Assembly (NCBI GenBank): GCA_964643995.1
Contig: CAZXUJ010000001.1
Span: 69,622 to 133,621 of the forward strand
Direction of reading: 5' to 3'
DNA: 64,000 nt
Origin: an uncultured Candidatus Saccharibacteria bacterium
Lineage (GTDB): Bacteria; Patescibacteriota; WWE3; UBA101185; UBA10185
The notes under the pieces were generated by a model that was not told the DNA's origin, ran no database searches, and was given only the letters and a program-made list of their open reading frames with translations. This document shows positions 2,882-58,796 of this stretch, piece by piece; the stretch's first letter is position 1; every line of letters starts with the position of its first letter. Both the position numbers and the translations under genes were made by a program.

Positions 2882-3875
2882 TTGGTTGATCTCCTTGCGT
2901 CATAAAATTAAAAAACATACTCCAAGTAAAATTTTTATACGTAGTTAAGTAGGCACCGACTGCCATAAAAACTTCAATTAAAGCGAAAAGCAAAGGAATT
3001 AAAAGTAAAATTAAAGCAACAACCAATCCCTGGCTCATATTCTCAAAATTTATAAACGATCTCGGTAAAATGAAACTCAACAGGACGCTTACAAACATTC
3101 CTAGGGTTACAAGCATCAATGTGGACACTACAAGACAGTTTGTTATTGCTAAAACAAACACTTTTACTATATTATTTACAAACATTTTCAAGCCTGCCTT
3201 GATAGCATCAAAAGCACCTTCACCCTTTAGAGCAATGTAACGTAATGTAAAGTTGTTACCTAAGGATAAAACAAGTAAAAAGATAAATATTGGTAGTAAC
3301 AAAAGCATGGCAACAGCAAGCAGTGTAGATGTTTCAGCAAGTAAAGCAGAAAGTCCAGCAGCTACAGAGACTATTAATATAACAGCACCGGCAGTGACAA
3401 ATAGCAGTCTATAACGAACAATTTCACGGAGCGACTTACGACCGTAACTACCTAAATCATTGAGGGAGTAACTTCTATCACTTATAGCATCGTTCATGCC
3501 ACCAAGAAATGCTCCATATGCCCAGCTCTGTGTAAATAAGCTTACAGATATTGAGAATACTATAAAAATTATTAAAGCAATGCTAAACAAAATTCTATTG
3601 CCTGTGCTGATAGATGCTATTGCTTTGGAAACGTATGAGAAGTCAGGACGCATATCAGTTTCTCCAAGAACCATACCGACTAGATTTGCAGGTTTAGTTT
3701 TCTGCTTTTGATATTGGTACTGATTTTGATGTTCATTACTAGAGTTAGTATTCGAAGAGCCTCCTACAAAATTAAATGACCCCATAGAACCAAGCATAAG
3801 CGCTAATACCCAAAGCATTTTATGTTTCCATGCTAGTTTTAAAGATTTTGACACTATATCGGATAAGTTATACAT
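2868..3875 (-). CDS. Hypothetical polytopic membrane protein
   Basis: 335 aa with a signal/TM N-terminus, a Q/N-rich linker and about 8 hydrophobic helices. No recognisable catalytic motif. Confidence 0.45.
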   Translation of the reverse strand: MYNLSDIVSKSLKLAWKHKMLWVLALMLGSMGSFNFVGGSSNTNSSNEHQNQYQYQKQKTKPANLVGMVLGETDMRPDFSYVSKAIASISTGNRILFSIALIIFIVFSISVSLFTQSWAYGAFLGGMNDAISDRSYSLNDLGSYGRKSLREIVRYRLLFVTAGAVILIVSVAAGLSALLAETSTLLAVAMLLLLPIFIFLLVLSLGNNFTLRYIALKGEGAFDAIKAGLKMFVNNIVKVFVLAITNCLVVSTLMLVTLGMFVSVLLSFILPRSFINFENMSQGLVVALILLLIPLLFALIEVFMAVGAYLTTYKNFTWSMFFNFMTQGDQPNGTN

Positions 3876-5016: not shown

Positions 5017-5044
5017 AACAAAAAAGGTCCGGACTAGCCGGACC
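5017..5044 (-). terminator. Rho-independent terminator downstream of the hsp20 gene
   Basis: Hairpin GGTCCGG-actag-CCGGACC (5026-5044) followed on the minus strand by a T-run (A-run 5017-5025 on the plus strand). It lies immediately 3' of the hsp20 stop. Confidence 0.6.
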
Positions 5045-5064
5045 TTACCGTAAGTAATTCAATA

Positions 5065-42768: not shown

Positions 42769-43824
42769 ATGACAGTGAACAAGAAATTATTTCGTCCTCC
42801 CATAAATCTCACTCTTTTAAGGAAATTGATTATTGTTTTTGCCTTCTTGTTCATTTGTTTTCTTACCTTTTTTGTTTATCAGGATCTTTTTATTCGTAAA
42901 AATTGTGTTGGTCCCTGGGGCAGCCAAGCTTGTCGGGGTTTTGAAGCTAATAATATATGTTTCGGTTATCGTTATCCGGTTTGTGGTTCACCAAATCTTC
43001 CTTATTTGCTTACTCAAGAAAAAAGTATAGTACCGTTATATATTGGTGAAACAGAAAAAGGTTGCAGAGAATTTTTTGAGGCAAACTGCCCTATCCACCT
43101 TGGATGCCAGATGATGTGTACGGACTCATATCCATCACATTGTTCTTGTGGAGGTAGATTTTTTAACACTATCAATTTGATTCCAGCTGAAAAATGCATC
43201 CTAGAAACATATGAAACAGAAAACATTCCTAATATTGCAAAAAATGAAATGAAATATGGGATATATTTACATGAAGCATTTTTGCCAACAGAGAACATAA
43301 GTGAGGCTGCCTCCTGTCTAGAGCGCTATCCTAATAAAGAATTTTATGCATATCTCCAATTGACCGAAGCACCTACTGAGGATATTGAAAAACTCTTTGA
43401 TGAACATGGTATGTTTTTACACTTTGCAGCAAGAAACCTATTGTATACAATAAAATTCCCTGCCGAAACAAAGCTGTCAAAAGAAATAAAAGATCACATA
43501 AGGTGGATTGGTGTTTTGGATGTGAAACACAAAGTATCTGAAGACTTGTGGTATGGCACTGTTGACGAATCGGCCTTGACTGAAAATGGTGATGTAAAAT
43601 TGATCGTGAGTTTTTGGGCAGAAGAAAAAGAAGATGGTGCGCGTAAAATTCTGGATAAATATAATGCTTCAGTTGAATCATTCTCTGTTCGCGAAATCAA
43701 GCAAGGTATTAGGTATATAAGTACGCAAATTACAATGAATCCAATTAATTTGCGTGGGTTAGCCTCTGAAAATACAGTAATCGGCATAAGCACAGTTTCT
43801 CCCCCACCAGAAATCTCTAACTAA
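42769..43824 (+). CDS. Hypothetical cysteine-rich secreted protein
   Basis: N-terminal signal/TM. Cys-rich module of about 100 aa (CVGPWGSQAC..C..C.., CREFFEANCPIHLGCQMMC...CSCGG), then a 200-aa domain. The start is uncertain because a TATAAT hexamer lies immediately 5' of the annotated ATG. Confidence 0.5.
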   Translation: MTVNKKLFRPPINLTLLRKLIIVFAFLFICFLTFFVYQDLFIRKNCVGPWGSQACRGFEANNICFGYRYPVCGSPNLPYLLTQEKSIVPLYIGETEKGCREFFEANCPIHLGCQMMCTDSYPSHCSCGGRFFNTINLIPAEKCILETYETENIPNIAKNEMKYGIYLHEAFLPTENISEAASCLERYPNKEFYAYLQLTEAPTEDIEKLFDEHGMFLHFAARNLLYTIKFPAETKLSKEIKDHIRWIGVLDVKHKVSEDLWYGTVDESALTENGDVKLIVSFWAEEKEDGARKILDKYNASVESFSVREIKQGIRYISTQITMNPINLRGLASENTVIGISTVSPPPEISN

Positions 43825-43859: not shown

Positions 43860-44396
43860 TTAAACTGAAATGTAGGTATTAAACAACGGTTGCGCCACCT
43901 CTAATGATTCAAACTGTTGAGCCTTGGGCTCACCCATAAAGAATGAGGAGGTATCACTACCTCCTTTTTTCTTGACAAATCGCACTAATTTAGGTGTTCC
44001 AAAAGTCAATTCATCATAGGTTGGAGGTTGCTCAAAAAGGGGTACTTGACAATAGTCTGACAGTTGGTTTGCAGACCATGCTTTTACTACTTTCCACTTT
44101 ACATCCCCTATCTGAACGTCTTCATTAAGTTTTACTGTTTTAACTGAATCCTTAGTCTCTTTTACTTTTTGTGAATTTGTATCGTTGTTGGAAGTATTTT
44201 TAGAATCTGATCCAGTACTTGTCTTACTTGATGATCCACCAGCTGAAGCGATGATACCAATAATAAACAAGACCAATATTCCTGTGATAATTGGGTGTTT
44301 TGCAAAGAATCCTCTTTGATCTTTTTTGCAGTATGGGAATATCTTAGCTTTTTGATCAATGTCAGTTTGACAATATTTACATTTTTTAGTCGCCAC
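43860..44396 (-). CDS. Zn-ribbon / TM / extracellular-domain protein
   Basis: N-terminal CKYCQ...YCKK zinc ribbon, one TM (ITGILVLFIIGIIASAGG), an S/T/N-rich linker and a beta-rich C-terminal domain. Confidence 0.5.
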   Translation of the reverse strand: MATKKCKYCQTDIDQKAKIFPYCKKDQRGFFAKHPIITGILVLFIIGIIASAGGSSSKTSTGSDSKNTSNNDTNSQKVKETKDSVKTVKLNEDVQIGDVKWKVVKAWSANQLSDYCQVPLFEQPPTYDELTFGTPKLVRFVKKKGGSDTSSFFMGEPKAQQFESLEVAQPLFNTYISV

Positions 44397-54489: not shown

Positions 54490-55491
54490 CTAGTCCAAAT
54501 TGATATCCCATATTTCCCCTTGAGAAAATACCGGAAAACTATGCAGGAGATCAGACCAGCTGGATGGGTTAATAGAAAAAGCACGGCTGAGATCATAACC
54601 AGTAGCATCAACACCATTTCTTTTAATGTTGAGAGCAGTTGTTACACTCACTTGGGAGGTTGGGTAGTTAGCAACTATACTCTCTACAGTTCCTCGTGAA
54701 GAGCTATAATCTCGTACCAACAAGGCAGAGTTTTGTACAGAAGAAGCACTCCATATGAGCTGATAGACAGCTTTTCCGCTGAGCCTTAAACCAATCAGCT
54801 TCACTAACTCAGCGATGGGGGTTTGCCAAGCCTGGCGTTCTCTCCATGCCTTTGCACCTTTGCAACCAACCTCATTTGTTGCGTGCTCGTTTCTGCAAAG
54901 CACATAGGCACCATTGGACAAACGAACTGGATGATAGATAACCTCACTTCTTTGGTTACTACAATCCGGGCATGGGACCTTTCCTAATGCATTACCCCCA
55001 TACCAACTCAAATCAACGAGTGGCACGTTGAAAGATTCCTCCAGAGGCAATACCAACCCAACCTTTGCAATCCCTAGGAAAATGCCTAAATTTTCGAGCA
55101 ACTCAGCTCGTTTCAGATGTACAGGCCCTAAAAGTGCCGCAGGAGCAAAGTTCCCCGAGACCTTTGCGATATTCCGCATGTACGGATCATAAAAATCCCT
55201 CCACTGAGAATCATCCACAGCGTCTCCAGCAGGCCATAAATGCCGATATTCGCCCAAAGTACCGCCATATCCCATAAACGATACTAAATTCTTCCCTGGA
55301 TACTGCGTTGCAATTGCCAACTGTAAGAACAGCTCTGACGCCCGAAGATTCGGACTAGGTGTGCTGGCATCAGCCAACATCCAAGTCTCTATATCCGGAA
55401 CACCTATAGAAGCATCCCAACGATTCTGAAAAGCTTCTTTGGCTACATTGTAACCACTTTCATCTGAGCTGAATCTCTTCACAATTTTCAT
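54490..55491 (-). CDS. Hypothetical protein in a GC-elevated islet
   Basis: 333-aa ORF. Local GC is about 47% against about 36% in the flanks. Cys cluster CPDC...C...C. Motifs GDAVDD...RNEH weakly resemble metallophosphoesterase motifs, but no confident family assignment was made. Confidence 0.5.
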   Translation of the reverse strand: MKIVKRFSSDESGYNVAKEAFQNRWDASIGVPDIETWMLADASTPSPNLRASELFLQLAIATQYPGKNLVSFMGYGGTLGEYRHLWPAGDAVDDSQWRDFYDPYMRNIAKVSGNFAPAALLGPVHLKRAELLENLGIFLGIAKVGLVLPLEESFNVPLVDLSWYGGNALGKVPCPDCSNQRSEVIYHPVRLSNGAYVLCRNEHATNEVGCKGAKAWRERQAWQTPIAELVKLIGLRLSGKAVYQLIWSASSVQNSALLVRDYSSSRGTVESIVANYPTSQVSVTTALNIKRNGVDATGYDLSRAFSINPSSWSDLLHSFPVFSQGEIWDINLD

Positions 55492-55564: not shown

Positions 55565-56773
55565 CTAACTGCTTAACACCTTTTCATATAAATCTTCCAT
55601 TTGAGATACTTGAGCATCTAAGGTATATCTACCGGAAATAAACTTTGATGCATCTACTGCTTTGGCTTGTAAACTTTGTCTGTAGAGCTGATCAGTAAAA
55701 AATCTATATAGCGCATCTTCCAAAGCTGCAGTATTTCCAACAGCAACCAATTCAGAGTAGTTACCATTTTGAGATTGTTCAACTAGCCCCTCTATATTAG
55801 AACTGATTACAGGTATTCCCAAAGCTAATGCTTCAAGAACCGCATTAGACCAAACTTCGGTTAATGAAGGTTGTACATATAAACTGGTTTTACTTAAATA
55901 CTGTGAAACCTTAGCATTAGGAACATAGCCCAAAAATTCAACACTATCACCAAGATTGTTATAATCACACAACTGACGCATTTCCCTTATATCTGAGCCA
56001 CCACCAATCAAACGCACCTTAACTGCTATCCCATTGGAACGCAAACCTTTGACTGCATCAATTAAGTAGTTGATACCTTTCAAAAATGACAACTCTCCCA
56101 CATATGTTATATCTGCTGGCGATATGTCATTGTCATACAGGCCCACCACTGGAACCGTATGATTGTTTGGGTTAGTACCAAAATCTGTTCCGTTGTGCAC
56201 AACATGCAGTTCTTTGTCTATCCCTAACCACTGTAAACCCTCTTTTATGCACTCGGCAGGTGCAGAGACATATATATTTTCAGACGGCAAATATTGACGT
56301 AAAAAATTCAATTTGGACTCTTTTTCCAGCGAAGTCATTGTACCCAAAGCCGAGAAAGGAATATGTCGGTGAGATGTACGTATAGAAAATATACATTTCT
56401 TGGAATTTTCAGCACAATATCTTAAAGCTTCCAAAGAAGCAGGACGGCAAGAGTAAGTAAAATATATATGCGTTACGTCAGCCCAGTTAATTAAATCCTG
56501 CAACTTCTTCATGGAGTCTAATAAAACTATTTTCACACCATCAATCTCTTTTACATCAGCTGTAGTTTTATATGTCTCAGAAGAAAATCTACTGGTGGCG
56601 ATTACAACTTCGTATCCTCTATCAACCAACTCTCGGGCACTTTTAAACACGTTAACTTCCACACCACCACCTTCTGTTGGAGGGTAATCATGAACAAACA
56701 ATATTTTTTTGCTAACTACGTTTTTTTCCATAACTATGGTGCTATTCTCCTGGAGCCGCCATTGCCAGCACAA
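55565..56773 (-). CDS. Glycosyltransferase family 4 (GT-B; BshA/MshA/PIG-A-like N-acetylglucosaminyltransferase candidate)
   Basis: C-terminal EVWSNAVLEALALGIPVISSNIEGLVEQ (EX7E region) and the N-terminal GT4 fold. It overlaps the upstream PIG-L gene by 40 nt. Confidence 0.8.
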   Translation of the reverse strand: MCWQWRLQENSTIVMEKNVVSKKILFVHDYPPTEGGGVEVNVFKSARELVDRGYEVVIATSRFSSETYKTTADVKEIDGVKIVLLDSMKKLQDLINWADVTHIYFTYSCRPASLEALRYCAENSKKCIFSIRTSHRHIPFSALGTMTSLEKESKLNFLRQYLPSENIYVSAPAECIKEGLQWLGIDKELHVVHNGTDFGTNPNNHTVPVVGLYDNDISPADITYVGELSFLKGINYLIDAVKGLRSNGIAVKVRLIGGGSDIREMRQLCDYNNLGDSVEFLGYVPNAKVSQYLSKTSLYVQPSLTEVWSNAVLEALALGIPVISSNIEGLVEQSQNGNYSELVAVGNTAALEDALYRFFTDQLYRQSLQAKAVDASKFISGRYTLDAQVSQMEDLYEKVLSS

Positions 56774-57489
56774 ACAAATTCATGCAAAATTGACGAATTT
56801 TCAGGCTTAAATTTATACCATGTAGGATTAAGCAAATCGTAACACTCAGCATATTTGTACCCAACACGTGAGCCTCTCAACAATGCCAAACCATTTACAA
56901 AATTGCGCAGGTATTCATCCACTCTATTTTCATATGCCACTTCAGTTGCAGAAATTTTAGCTTCATGAGAATCAGACGTGTTAAATGTTATTAAAGGATT
57001 AGGCAAAACATTTAGTCCATCGGTTTGCACCAAGATTCCAGTTTTGATAGGTTCCCCTAGCTCTGGCTGAGTTTTTCTGTATGCTATTTCGAATGCCCGC
57101 TTGCCAATATCATGGGAAACAGTATGCTCAAAATGATAATCATCTCTGTTCATCAGAGCTACAACATCGGGCCGTATTTCCCTAATAGCCTTTGCAACCT
57201 GCATAATGACGGCTTCATCCTCACCAAACAATCTTTTGGCCGGATCCAAGATAATAGGGTCATTAACGCCTAATATTTTACAAAAATGCCTAGTTTCATT
57301 TATTCTGTTTTCCCTAATCTCCTTACCTTCACCCGTATCACTTATGGCATTCTTAGCGGTTGTACAAACCAGCTCATAGACATCCCAGCCTGAGTCAACC
57401 AAACGTTTCATTGTGCCCCCTACCAACATATCGTCGTCTGGGTGCGCACAGATATACAAATATTTTAACTTTTTGTTCTCGGTTTCCAT
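56734..57489 (-). CDS. PIG-L/LmbE-family N-acetylglucosaminyl deacetylase (BshB/MshB-like)
   Basis: LYICAHPDDDMLVGG (AHPDDE-type zinc-binding motif), 251 aa. Confidence 0.8.
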   Translation of the reverse strand: METENKKLKYLYICAHPDDDMLVGGTMKRLVDSGWDVYELVCTTAKNAISDTGEGKEIRENRINETRHFCKILGVNDPIILDPAKRLFGEDEAVIMQVAKAIREIRPDVVALMNRDDYHFEHTVSHDIGKRAFEIAYRKTQPELGEPIKTGILVQTDGLNVLPNPLITFNTSDSHEAKISATEVAYENRVDEYLRNFVNGLALLRGSRVGYKYAECYDLLNPTWYKFKPENSSILHEFVCAGNGGSRRIAP

Positions 57490-57523
57490 TTTTGTTTCCT
57501 AAATTAATTACTAAGCAAACCAA

Positions 57524-57560
57524 CAAAAAAAGCCTCCGAATGGAGGCTTTTTGTAGTTTT
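57524..57560 (-). terminator. Rho-independent terminator downstream of the 38-aa small ORF
   Basis: Hairpin AGCCTCC-gaat-GGAGGCT (57531-57548) with a T7 run on the minus strand (A-run 57524-57530 on the plus strand) and T-rich sequence on the other side. It could act in both directions. Confidence 0.6.
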
Positions 57561-57579
57561 AAAAATTTTTACTAACTTA

Positions 57580-57696
57580 CTACTCGGCCCCCATTAACTG
57601 CTTAACAAAGAGAATAAACACTATAACGAGGACATACATAGTATTACCTGTTATTAATTGGTTATTTAGTTGTAGCGCCAATGTTTGACTTTTCAT
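57580..57696 (-). CDS. Unannotated 38-aa hydrophobic peptide gene (MKSQTLALQLNNQLITGNTMYVLVIVFILFVKQLMGAE)
   Basis: Below the ORF-track size cutoff. ATG at 57694-57696, a single predicted TM helix, a strong promoter upstream and an intrinsic terminator 31 nt downstream. Confidence 0.45.
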   Translation of the reverse strand: MKSQTLALQLNNQLITGNTMYVLVIVFILFVKQLMGAE

Positions 57697-57714
57697 AAGC
57701 TACTCGTATGGCAC

Positions 57715-57741
57715 ATTATACCAAAAATCCACAAATTGCAA
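57715..57741 (-). promoter_or_regulatory. Sigma70-like promoter with an extended -10 (TTGCAA - 15 nt - TGgTATAAT) for the small ORF
   Basis: On the minus strand: TTGCAATTTGTGGATTTTTGGTATAAT. The -10 TATAAT is plus-strand 57715-57720 and the -35 is 57736-57741. Confidence 0.4.
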
Positions 57742-57770
57742 AATTCTCTACATACATCTAATATCTACAC

Positions 57771-58796
57771 ATGAGTTCTAAACTTCAAAAAGGTGCAAAA
57801 ACCGCTATCAACCACTGTATAAAGCTTCAAAAAAAAGATCGTATAGTTATCATAACTGATACAGAAACGCTTGAGGTTGGTGAAGCACTAGACAGTGAGG
57901 CTAAGAAAATTACACAAAACATACTTTTTCTTGTTATTGAGGATTTTACAGAGAGGCCCGCAAGAAACTTGCCGCAGAAAATGCTTGATCAAATCTCAGA
58001 ATTTAAGCCGAATGTTTCAATTTATGCTGCACAAGGAAAACAAGGCGAATATCCAGTTTTTCGTAGTCCTTTGATAGATTTTTTGGCAAAAGACCTCGAG
58101 TGTAGACATGCACACATGATTCTTATAACCAAACAAATTATGGAGGATGGTATGAATCAAGACTTTAATCAAATTTACCGAGTTACTAATAATGTTTTTG
58201 AGATAGTTCACTTAGCCTCAAAGATTCGGGTGACAGATCCCCATGGAACAGATATTACGTTTGATCTAGATCCCATCAATATAAAATGGACTCCGGATGA
58301 TGGGCTGATTCGCAAGATTCACTACGCGAATCTGCCTGGAGGAGAGGTTTTCACAGCGCCAAAAAATGCTAACGGAATATTTGTAGGCTGGATACTGGGT
58401 GAGTATATGTCAACCAAATATGGTCCTTTGAAAAAACCAATCATAATAAAAGTTGTTGAGGGCATTGCAACAGAAGTTAAGGGGGATGAGCCAATGAGAA
58501 CTGAATTTGAGGACTATATAAGTGCCAATGAAAATGGTAACAGACTAGGAGAACTGGGCATTGGAACACTTGTAGGGCTAAAAGAGTTTATTGGAAACTT
58601 GCTACAGGACGAAAAATTTCCTGGGGTTCACATTGCGTTTGGAAGTCCATACCCAGAAAAAACCGGAGCGACTTGGGAGGCTAAATCTCATATTGATACC
58701 ATAGCTAAAGACACTACAATTGAGGTTTTTATCAACGATCAATCGCAAATAATAATGAAAGATGGAAAATTTGTTGAAAAAGTTTTAATATTATAG
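57771..58796 (+). CDS. M29-family aminopeptidase (aminopeptidase T/PepS-like)
   Basis: GELGIGTLVG...FPGVHIAFGSPYPEKTGATWEAKSHIDTI matches the C-terminal metal-binding region of M29. It is shorter (341 aa) than typical members. Confidence 0.65.
   Translation: MSSKLQKGAKTAINHCIKLQKKDRIVIITDTETLEVGEALDSEAKKITQNILFLVIEDFTERPARNLPQKMLDQISEFKPNVSIYAAQGKQGEYPVFRSPLIDFLAKDLECRHAHMILITKQIMEDGMNQDFNQIYRVTNNVFEIVHLASKIRVTDPHGTDITFDLDPINIKWTPDDGLIRKIHYANLPGGEVFTAPKNANGIFVGWILGEYMSTKYGPLKKPIIIKVVEGIATEVKGDEPMRTEFEDYISANENGNRLGELGIGTLVGLKEFIGNLLQDEKFPGVHIAFGSPYPEKTGATWEAKSHIDTIAKDTTIEVFINDQSQIIMKDGKFVEKVLIL

Follow-up and report, generated by a model that had tools for sequence, protein, structure and literature searches.

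Organization of the leader unit and its operon

This study concerns a short transcription unit in a 64-kb stretch of DNA (64,000 nucleotides of contig CAZXUJ010000001.1, assembly GCA_964643995.1, from an uncultured Candidatus Saccharibacteria bacterium), referred to below as the window. The unit, here called the leader, precedes three genes encoding a PIG-L/LmbE-family deacetylase, a GT4 glycosyltransferase and an orphan protein, and it is considered here as a candidate transcription attenuator of that operon. Leader and operon lie on the minus strand. The leader promoter consists of the palindromic -35 hexamer TTGCAA (57736..57741) and an extended -10 element, TGgTATAAT (57715..57723), which matches TATAAT at 6/6 positions and carries the TG ahead of it. 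TTGCAA and the -10 hexamer are separated by a 15-nt spacer whose final three bases are the start of TGgTATAAT; the promoter scan reads the same element as TTTGCA-16-TATAAT, a 10/12 match plus the TG extension. In the relative locus L038 the extended -10 is conserved as TGaTATAAT. Promoter-like matches in the region as a whole are not above chance (18 vs 13.8 expected).

The leader open reading frame (ORF; 57580..57696) begins with an ATG at 57696, 18 nt past the -10 element and about 10-12 nt from the inferred 5' end, and comprises 38 codons (MKSQTLALQLNNQLITGNTMYVLVIVFILFVKQLMGAE) followed by a TAG stop at 57582-57580. It is not preceded by a Shine-Dalgarno sequence. The stop codon is separated by 32 nt from the GC core of an intrinsic terminator (57525..57552; AAAAAGCCUCC-AUUC-GGAGGCUUUUU followed by U7), in which GCCTCC (57547-57542) and GGAGGC (57537-57532) enclose an ATTC loop, with T7 at 57531-57525 and A5 on the other flank. 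The hairpin folds with -17.9 kcal/mol (z = -5.0), an energy equalled by 0/200 shuffles, and only about three terminators of such quality are found in the whole window, other terminator-like counts being at the shuffle level. The leader in its entirety also folds better than its shuffles (z = -3.3). It is single-copy within the window.

The T7 tract ends 35 nt ahead of the PIG-L start codon (ATG at 57489), and the scan of the minus strand called no promoter between the leader promoter and a point well inside the PIG-L gene. The latter (56734..57489; PF02585, 4.4e-20) has a Shine-Dalgarno-like AGGAA (57496..57500) located 3' of the terminator, and the 17 nt surrounding it are identical in L038. 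Its product gives a weak BshB1-like match under the cut-off. The ATG of the GT4 gene (55565..56731) follows 2 nt after the PIG-L stop codon, and the third gene (54490..55491) encodes the 333-aa orphan protein with conserved cysteines in a CPxC...H...C arrangement.

The original prediction for this locus, a promoter, a 38-codon ORF and a GC hairpin with T7 ahead of PIG-L, is thus confirmed in each of its parts on the minus strand, and the free energy of the terminator has been added. The arrangement stands, with corrected distances: 32 nt instead of 31 between ORF and hairpin, and 35 nt instead of 34 between terminator and PIG-L. The proposal that read-through could control the downstream operon is likewise supported by the layout, there being 35 nt after the terminator and no promoter called in them.

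Conservation of the leader layout

Relatives were collected by retrieving the DNA around homologues of PIG-L and of the orphan protein. They were supplied by an alignment-based genome scan; the single-protein genome scan found none. Most of the loci it returned (L008-L034), being distant PIG-L proteins without the operon, as well as L036 and L040, which stop short of the upstream region, were left out. In the resulting set nine loci, representing about seven diverged lineages of the Candidate Phyla Radiation (CPR), have the leader layout at the head of the PIG-L/GT4/orphan operon; they carry WWE3, Saccharibacteria and Parcubacteria labels. The nearest named relatives of the PIG-L protein itself belong to candidate division WWE3 and the farther ones to Paceibacterota, which places the window in a CPR/Patescibacteria genome. 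The order PIG-L-GT4-orphan is found in the window, L038/L039, L001, L002, L003/L005 and probably L035, where the contig ends inside GT4; the order orphan-PIG-L-GT4 occurs in L037, L006/L014 (Saccharibacteria label) and L007 (Parcubacteria label). The leader stands at the 5' end of the operon in all nine, whichever gene leads. This fixed position backs the leader-peptide/attenuator arrangement that had been suggested from the window alone, as does the complementarity of the ORF end to the 5' arm of the terminator described below.

The individual elements recur with similar consistency. A sigma-70-type promoter was called at the matching place in seven of the eight relatives (L038, L001, L002, L003, L037, L006 and L007), and the scan of L035 gave no call at the equivalent place. 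Across the nine loci the ATG lies 7-18 nt past the -10 element without a Shine-Dalgarno sequence, the ORF has 30-45 codons, and the spacer between the ORF and the GC core of the hairpin measures 32, 32, 32, 30, 38, 32, 32, 24 and 36 nt. A hairpin terminator was called in 7/8 relatives, that of L037 having a weak U-tract; the hairpin of L006 is present and went uncalled because its T-run is too short. The lead gene of the operon has its own Shine-Dalgarno sequence in every locus except L007, where none is evident, and in L035 the gap between terminator and first gene is about 12-30 nt, depending on the choice of start codon. The leader ORF is annotated in only one of the nine loci (L002, as a 41-aa protein), so gene callers evidently overlook such frames.

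Alternative RNA helices

Two segments within the ORF can pair with one another, and one of them also with the terminator. Region 1 (GUCCUCGUUA, 57624..57633, codons 21-25) is complementary to region 2 (UAAUGGGGGCC, 57586..57596, codons 34-37), the predicted 1:2 duplex having an energy of -12.7 kcal/mol. Region 2, whose 3' end lies 3 nt ahead of the stop codon, can alternatively pair with the 5' arm of the terminator (region 3, GCCUCC), which would otherwise pair with the 3' arm (region 4, GGAGGC followed by U7). Pairing of GGGGGC (57592-57587) with GCCUCC is predicted at -10.5 kcal/mol, vs -5.2 for the best match elsewhere in the leader (shuffle p = 0.01). The fold of the nascent RNA contributes a second anti-terminator segment, in which GUAGU, spanning the UAG stop (57579..57583), pairs with ACUAC (57553..57557); both are unchanged in L038, and the intervening loop varies.

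The same relations are seen in the relatives. The ORF-end segment ahead of the stop codon resembles the 3' arm of the terminator in each locus, and the leader-wide best complement of the 5' arm falls within the last 25 nt or less of the ORF in 7/8 loci. Shuffling gives p = 0.01, 0.02, 0.001, 0.003 and 0.005 for the anti-terminator energy in the loci of the WWE3 type. When the nascent RNA is folded to its energy minimum with the 3' arm still missing, the 5' arm is found paired to the end of the ORF in 7/7 lineages, compared with 3-17 of 300 shuffled leaders (1-6%); unlike the energy test, this fold-based test gives clear support in the three distant loci. Complementarity between regions 1 and 2 is present in 9/9 loci (-11.6 to -17.4 kcal/mol), region 1 being inside the ORF and region 2 ending between -6 and +12 nt from the stop codon in every case.

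Folding in three states was attenuator-like throughout the nine loci. With the full leader and no ribosome, the terminator forms and region 1 holds region 2. When the 5' part is masked, imitating a stalled ribosome, the anti-terminator forms in 9/9 loci (8/9 in unmasked nascent folds), and in five of them the 5'-masked anti-terminator is still the minimum-energy fold at full length. With a ribosome placed on the stop codon, the terminator forms. In the window and L038 the outer core pair of the terminator changes from A-U to G-C in coordination with a change of region 2 from GGAGGU to GGGGGC. RNAalifold on six relatives returns a consensus terminator helix with one covarying A-U<->G-C pair. 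In region 1 of L038, GUC is replaced by GCU, by which G-U and G-C pairs with the G-run are swapped and the helix is kept.

The GGAGG near the ORF end was also considered as a Shine-Dalgarno sequence for re-initiation and was rejected, since no start codon follows it and it is absent from L006 and L007.

The reading frame is kept and the peptide diverges

When the window leader is shuffled, an ORF near the 5' end with 30 or more codons and a stop ahead of the terminator appears in 0.7% of cases. The per-locus probabilities from dinucleotide shuffles are 0.007-0.05, with a product of 1.8e-12 over seven diverged loci. The peptides themselves align across lineages at Met1 only, with a mean column identity of 32-33%; their C-terminal residues differ between all lineages, and they have no conserved leader or core motif. 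A profile of eight peptides searched against 5.8 billion proteins matched only the annotated 41-aa protein of L002, itself one of the queries. A Pfam search of the leader peptide gave no match, and exact look-ups of the window leader peptide, PIG-L and M29 proteins returned no record. The expectation that the peptide would be found in relatives therefore holds for the ORF as such, which is conserved along with the hairpin, and fails for the amino-acid sequence; the refuting case named in the original prediction, a hairpin conserved without the ORF, does not apply.

Comparison of close pairs shows at which level the constraint acts. Between the window and L038 the leader ORF differs by 5 synonymous and 3 non-synonymous changes. 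The proportion of differing synonymous sites (pS) is 0.205, vs 0.43-0.72 in four neighbouring genes (binomial p = 0.02-0.0005), the synonymous sites of the flanking genes being near saturation. Identity is about 93% from the ORF start to the end of the T-run, 88% in PIG-L, 85% in GT4 and 70% in the orphan gene. Similarly, between L001 and L002 the pS of the ORF is 0.23, vs 0.68-0.78 in the neighbours; substitutions are distributed 5/6/7 by codon position, the ratio of non-synonymous to synonymous differences (pN/pS) is 0.53, and a 12-nt indel leaves the frame intact. Synonymous sites of the ORF are thus 2-3x more conserved than those of neighbouring genes, and the rare codons GTC, CTC, GGG and GCC fall exactly in regions 1 and 2, GTC and CTC being in region 1. 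A frame that is maintained, together with strong constraint on the nucleotides and a weak constraint on the amino acids that is specific to lineages, would be expected of a translated regulatory leader and not of an ordinary small-protein gene.

These data bear directly on whether the unit encodes an independent functional small protein, possibly membrane-associated, for which a leaky terminator would set a high ratio of peptide to enzymes with no regulated switch. Such a gene would naturally have its own promoter and terminator, a further terminator of the window lies directly ahead of a co-directional gene (see below), and between the window and L038 the ratio of non-synonymous to synonymous substitution rates (dN/dS) is 0.14, with 6/8 differences at codon position 3. 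A hydrophobic segment is moreover present in the window, L038, L001 and L002, where the Kyte-Doolittle 19-residue mean reaches the transmembrane level of at least 1.6 (2.06 in the window). However, this level is missing in the other five of the nine loci (0.35-1.12), and the apolar run in the window is only 13 residues long; the designation as a membrane peptide gene with one transmembrane helix is consequently not supported. Conservation of the initiator Met alone, a family search recovering just one query, the constrained synonymous sites and the missing third-position bias in L001/L002 are equally hard to reconcile with a small protein, which also leaves the complementarity between ORF end and terminator arm and the conserved stop-to-hairpin distance unexplained. 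We therefore judge a small-protein gene to be unlikely.

A second possibility is a precursor or scaffold peptide of the ribosomally synthesized and post-translationally modified (RiPP) type, modified by the three enzymes and followed by a partial terminator after the structural gene, as in lantibiotic operons. The resemblance is one of architecture only: promoter, short ORF, hairpin and enzyme genes come in the order of RiPP clusters, for which nisA-type operons are the model, and the third enzyme would be an orphan of unassigned function. The peptides, however, have no common leader or core motif and a different C-terminus in each lineage, the conserved trio comes without a protease, exporter or immunity gene, and PIG-L and GT4, with their weak BshA/BshB-like matches, resemble pairs for N-acetylglucosamine transfer and deacetylation on small molecules. 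With the RNA-level constraint on synonymous sites added, a RiPP-like role appears very unlikely.

Strong nucleotide conservation between close relatives and a fold better than that of shuffles could also indicate a non-coding leader RNA (a riboswitch, a protein-binding attenuator or a small RNA) with an incidental ORF. This is contradicted by the retention of the ORF in seven diverged lineages, each at P 0.007-0.05, by the survival of the frame across the 12-nt indel, and by a stop codon that always falls within -6 to +12 nt of region 2. No sequence is conserved across lineages in the manner normal for riboswitch aptamers. Rfam scans of the region, at the gathering threshold and in permissive mode, yielded sub-threshold, hairpin-driven matches only, the best being Phe_leader (31.7 vs 55 bits) and Thr_leader (15.5 vs 55), all centred on the hairpin. 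An incidental ORF is, on these grounds, highly improbable. A small toxin, which the original prediction had also entertained, can hardly be credited: hydrophobic, short and equipped with a promoter and a terminator of its own, the ORF recalls type I toxins, but no antisense (plus-strand) promoter was called over 57500-57760, hydrophobicity is not conserved, and the unit is fixed ahead of one metabolic operon in many genomes, neither mobile nor multicopy.

A candidate ribosome-dependent attenuator

We consider it on the whole probable, from sequence comparison and folding models, that the unit belongs to the PIG-L/GT4/orphan operon as its 5' leader and attenuates operon transcription in a ribosome-dependent (leader-peptide) way, like the trp/his attenuators. 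What the in silico analysis establishes is that the architecture is conserved, that alternative helices are available at set places with regard to the stop codon, that constraint acts on both the coding sequence and the RNA, and that no separate promoter is called for the operon. With regard to the features by which attenuators are recognized, the unit has a 5'-proximal short ORF and a terminator before the first gene with no later promoter, and it is predicted to form mutually exclusive anti-terminator and terminator helices, with the ORF overlapping the switching segments. A run of regulatory amino-acid codons is lacking, a feature that defines the amino-acid subclass and not antibiotic- or ligand-sensing leaders.

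In the mechanism we propose, transcription is inferred to start about 7 nt past TGgTATAAT, and the AUG, some 10-12 nt from the 5' end, would be translated despite the missing Shine-Dalgarno sequence, as the conservation of the ORF suggests. The RNA would then contain four interacting segments, regions 1 to 4. With no ribosome, the 1:2 and 3:4 helices would form and transcription would stop at the U-tract (57531-57525), giving an RNA of about 180 nt; region 1 would here serve as an anti-antiterminator that sequesters region 2. A ribosome stalled over region 1 would leave region 2 available for pairing with region 3, supplemented by the GUAGU:ACUAC pairing across the stop codon, and this 2:3 pairing would block the terminator and allow RNA polymerase to continue into the three operon genes. 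Conversely, a ribosome that has reached the UAG would cover region 2, so that the terminator could form again. The leader might respond to translation in general or to the supply of amino acids (in the window the stall zone is rich in Val, Leu, Ile and Phe), or else to a ligand that arrests the nascent peptide.

The predicted stall zone of the window reads Y-V-L-V-I-V-F-I-L-F-V and differs in the other loci. At least one Trp codon, 9-21 codons before the stop, is present in the leader peptides of 6/7 lineages (L001, L002, L003, L035, L037, L006 and L007), a pattern spotted post hoc; the seventh, the window/L038 lineage, has no Trp codon in its leader peptide. Trp makes up 1.3% of the sampled proteome. 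Sensing of a specific amino acid was rejected, as neither the branched-chain-rich stall zone of the window nor the Trp codons are common to all lineages.

Several observations weigh against an attenuator. All of its support comes from comparing sequences and from thermodynamic folding, and translation of an ORF lacking a Shine-Dalgarno sequence would need 5'-proximal initiation. No cognate amino-acid codon is repeated in a run, nor is any codon run common to the lineages, and the classical sensing logic is thus missing. Taken singly, the distant loci give borderline energy shuffles (L037 0.056, L006 0.06, L007 0.38), the U-tracts are poor in the L037 and L006 terminators, and the five WWE3-type lineages share ancestry and are therefore not independent. 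The dN/dS of 0.14 with third-position bias between the window and L038 points to some selection on the peptide itself, which would fit a functional small protein too. Finally, a second strong intrinsic terminator of the window (5024-5046, minus strand; a 9-bp stem, 6 of its pairs being GC, and a T-run) separates an HSP20 gene (5481-5065) from a YgjP-like metallopeptidase gene (5016-4447). The ATG of the latter lies about 5 nt past the T-run, so its expression seems to depend on read-through, as with PIG-L. A second strong terminator abutting the next gene raises the prospect that leaky constitutive terminators are a habit of this genome.

A more specific version of the attenuator, in which the leader, like TnaC or SpeFL, encodes a sensory arrest peptide, here acting through an intrinsic terminator on a near-leaderless mRNA, strikes us as quite unlikely. 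Such a peptide would report the state of a metabolite or of translation to a CPR-specific glucosamine-conjugate pathway, whose product would possibly be similar to a low-molecular-weight thiol and made with an uncharacterised zinc-ribbon enzyme. If true, it would be the first regulatory mechanism of this kind described in CPR/Patescibacteria and would be common to several phyla.

The downstream operon and neighbouring genes

The orphan protein of the operon matched nothing in Pfam, NCBIfam or PDB sequences, even with a 32-sequence profile. Its family (about 335 aa) comprises 31 cluster representatives at 50% identity among 1.84 billion proteins. The residues D41, C174, C210, G234 and Y262 are invariant, and the family bears a zinc-ribbon-like CPxC...H...C centre together with an RDYSxxRG motif. 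An AlphaFold model built from three sequences was unusable (predicted local distance difference test, pLDDT, 32). The gene always occurs alongside those for the PIG-L deacetylase and GT4, which weakly resemble BshB and BshA, and this constant company suggests that CPR bacteria have a glucosamine-conjugate pathway not yet characterised.

Upstream of the leader, and divergent to it, lies an M29-like peptidase gene (57736-57773 for its promoter and start, plus strand; ATG at 57771). It likewise has no Shine-Dalgarno sequence and is preceded by TTGCAA-N17-TAATAT-N6-ATG, a series also present in L038; being only an 8/12 match, this promoter does not appear in the list from the consensus scan. The palindromic TTGCAA of the leader promoter may thus double as the -35 element of the divergent gene. 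Given the missing Shine-Dalgarno sequence and a -10-like TAATAT 6 nt before the ATG, the M29 mRNA is probably leaderless. In L038 the M29 gene and the leader promoter are separated by an inserted gene (3370-3735) with a repetitive, coiled-coil-like product of 121 aa; the leader promoter is retained despite the insertion.

The third strong hairpin of the window, at 43945-43966 (+/-), likewise consists of GGAGG/CCTCC (GAGGAGGTATCACTACCTCCTT, with a T-run following) and falls within the 3'-terminal part of the minus-strand ORF 43860-44396, about 120 nt past the convergent gene 42769-43824. Stems of GGAGG/CCUCC may be a general terminator style of this low-GC genome (about 38% GC).

Significance and comparison with known systems

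CPR/Patescibacteria cannot be cultured alone, and to our knowledge almost nothing is known of their gene regulation. A full-text literature search found no attenuator described for this group, nor any report of the leader element or of the PIG-L/GT4/orphan operon in it. The class of mechanism is classical; its interest lies in the CPR host group, the conservation across phyla and the orphan enzyme that it would control. If the attenuator is real, these minimal CPR cells use the classical coupling logic of ribosome and RNA polymerase, and the trio would stand out as a pathway that is under regulation and probably important. The element, at about 190 nt, is compact and testable in vitro.

RiPP and lantibiotic operons with partial terminators share with the leader a strongly promoted short ORF, a hairpin and enzyme genes that depend on read-through. 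Unlike those operons, the present one has no conserved precursor motif and no protease or exporter, the end of its ORF complements a terminator arm, and its synonymous sites are constrained. Also comparable are leader peptides without codon runs, such as ermC, TnaC and SpeFL, in which stalling and not starvation for a single amino acid decides read-through and the peptide sequence can be under selection; TnaC and SpeFL work via Rho and not via an intrinsic terminator. The mef(E)/mel leader (PMC4335068) is another such leader peptide. The leader described here differs from such antibiotic- and metabolite-sensing systems in that the genes downstream are neither resistance nor catabolic genes and no arrest motif is recognisable.

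Among leaders without a Shine-Dalgarno sequence, the leaderless polycysteine short ORFs of mycobacteria offer a parallel (Canestrari et al., bioRxiv 10.1101/834739): when ribosomes pause on them, the RNA further downstream changes its structure and the operon its expression. They too are unannotated short ORFs at the extreme 5' end of a polycistronic mRNA. They control access to a ribosome-binding site, whereas the present leader has an intrinsic terminator and no codon tract.

The classical amino-acid attenuators trpL, hisL, pheL, thrL, leuL and ilvL differ from the leader in several respects: it has no cognate codon run, a longer peptide (30-45 aa), and an ORF without a Shine-Dalgarno sequence behind a 5' untranslated region of at most about 12 nt. 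The genes it would control encode a deacetylase, a glycosyltransferase and an orphan protein and not amino-acid biosynthesis, and its hosts are CPR bacteria. It belongs to none of the Rfam Trp, His, Phe, Thr and Leu leader families, scoring sub-threshold. What it has in common with these attenuators is the core of their design, namely a promoter-proximal short ORF, segments that can pair as 1:2 plus 3:4 or as 2:3, a terminator just ahead of the first structural gene, and a stop codon whose position would let a terminating ribosome mask the anti-terminator strand.

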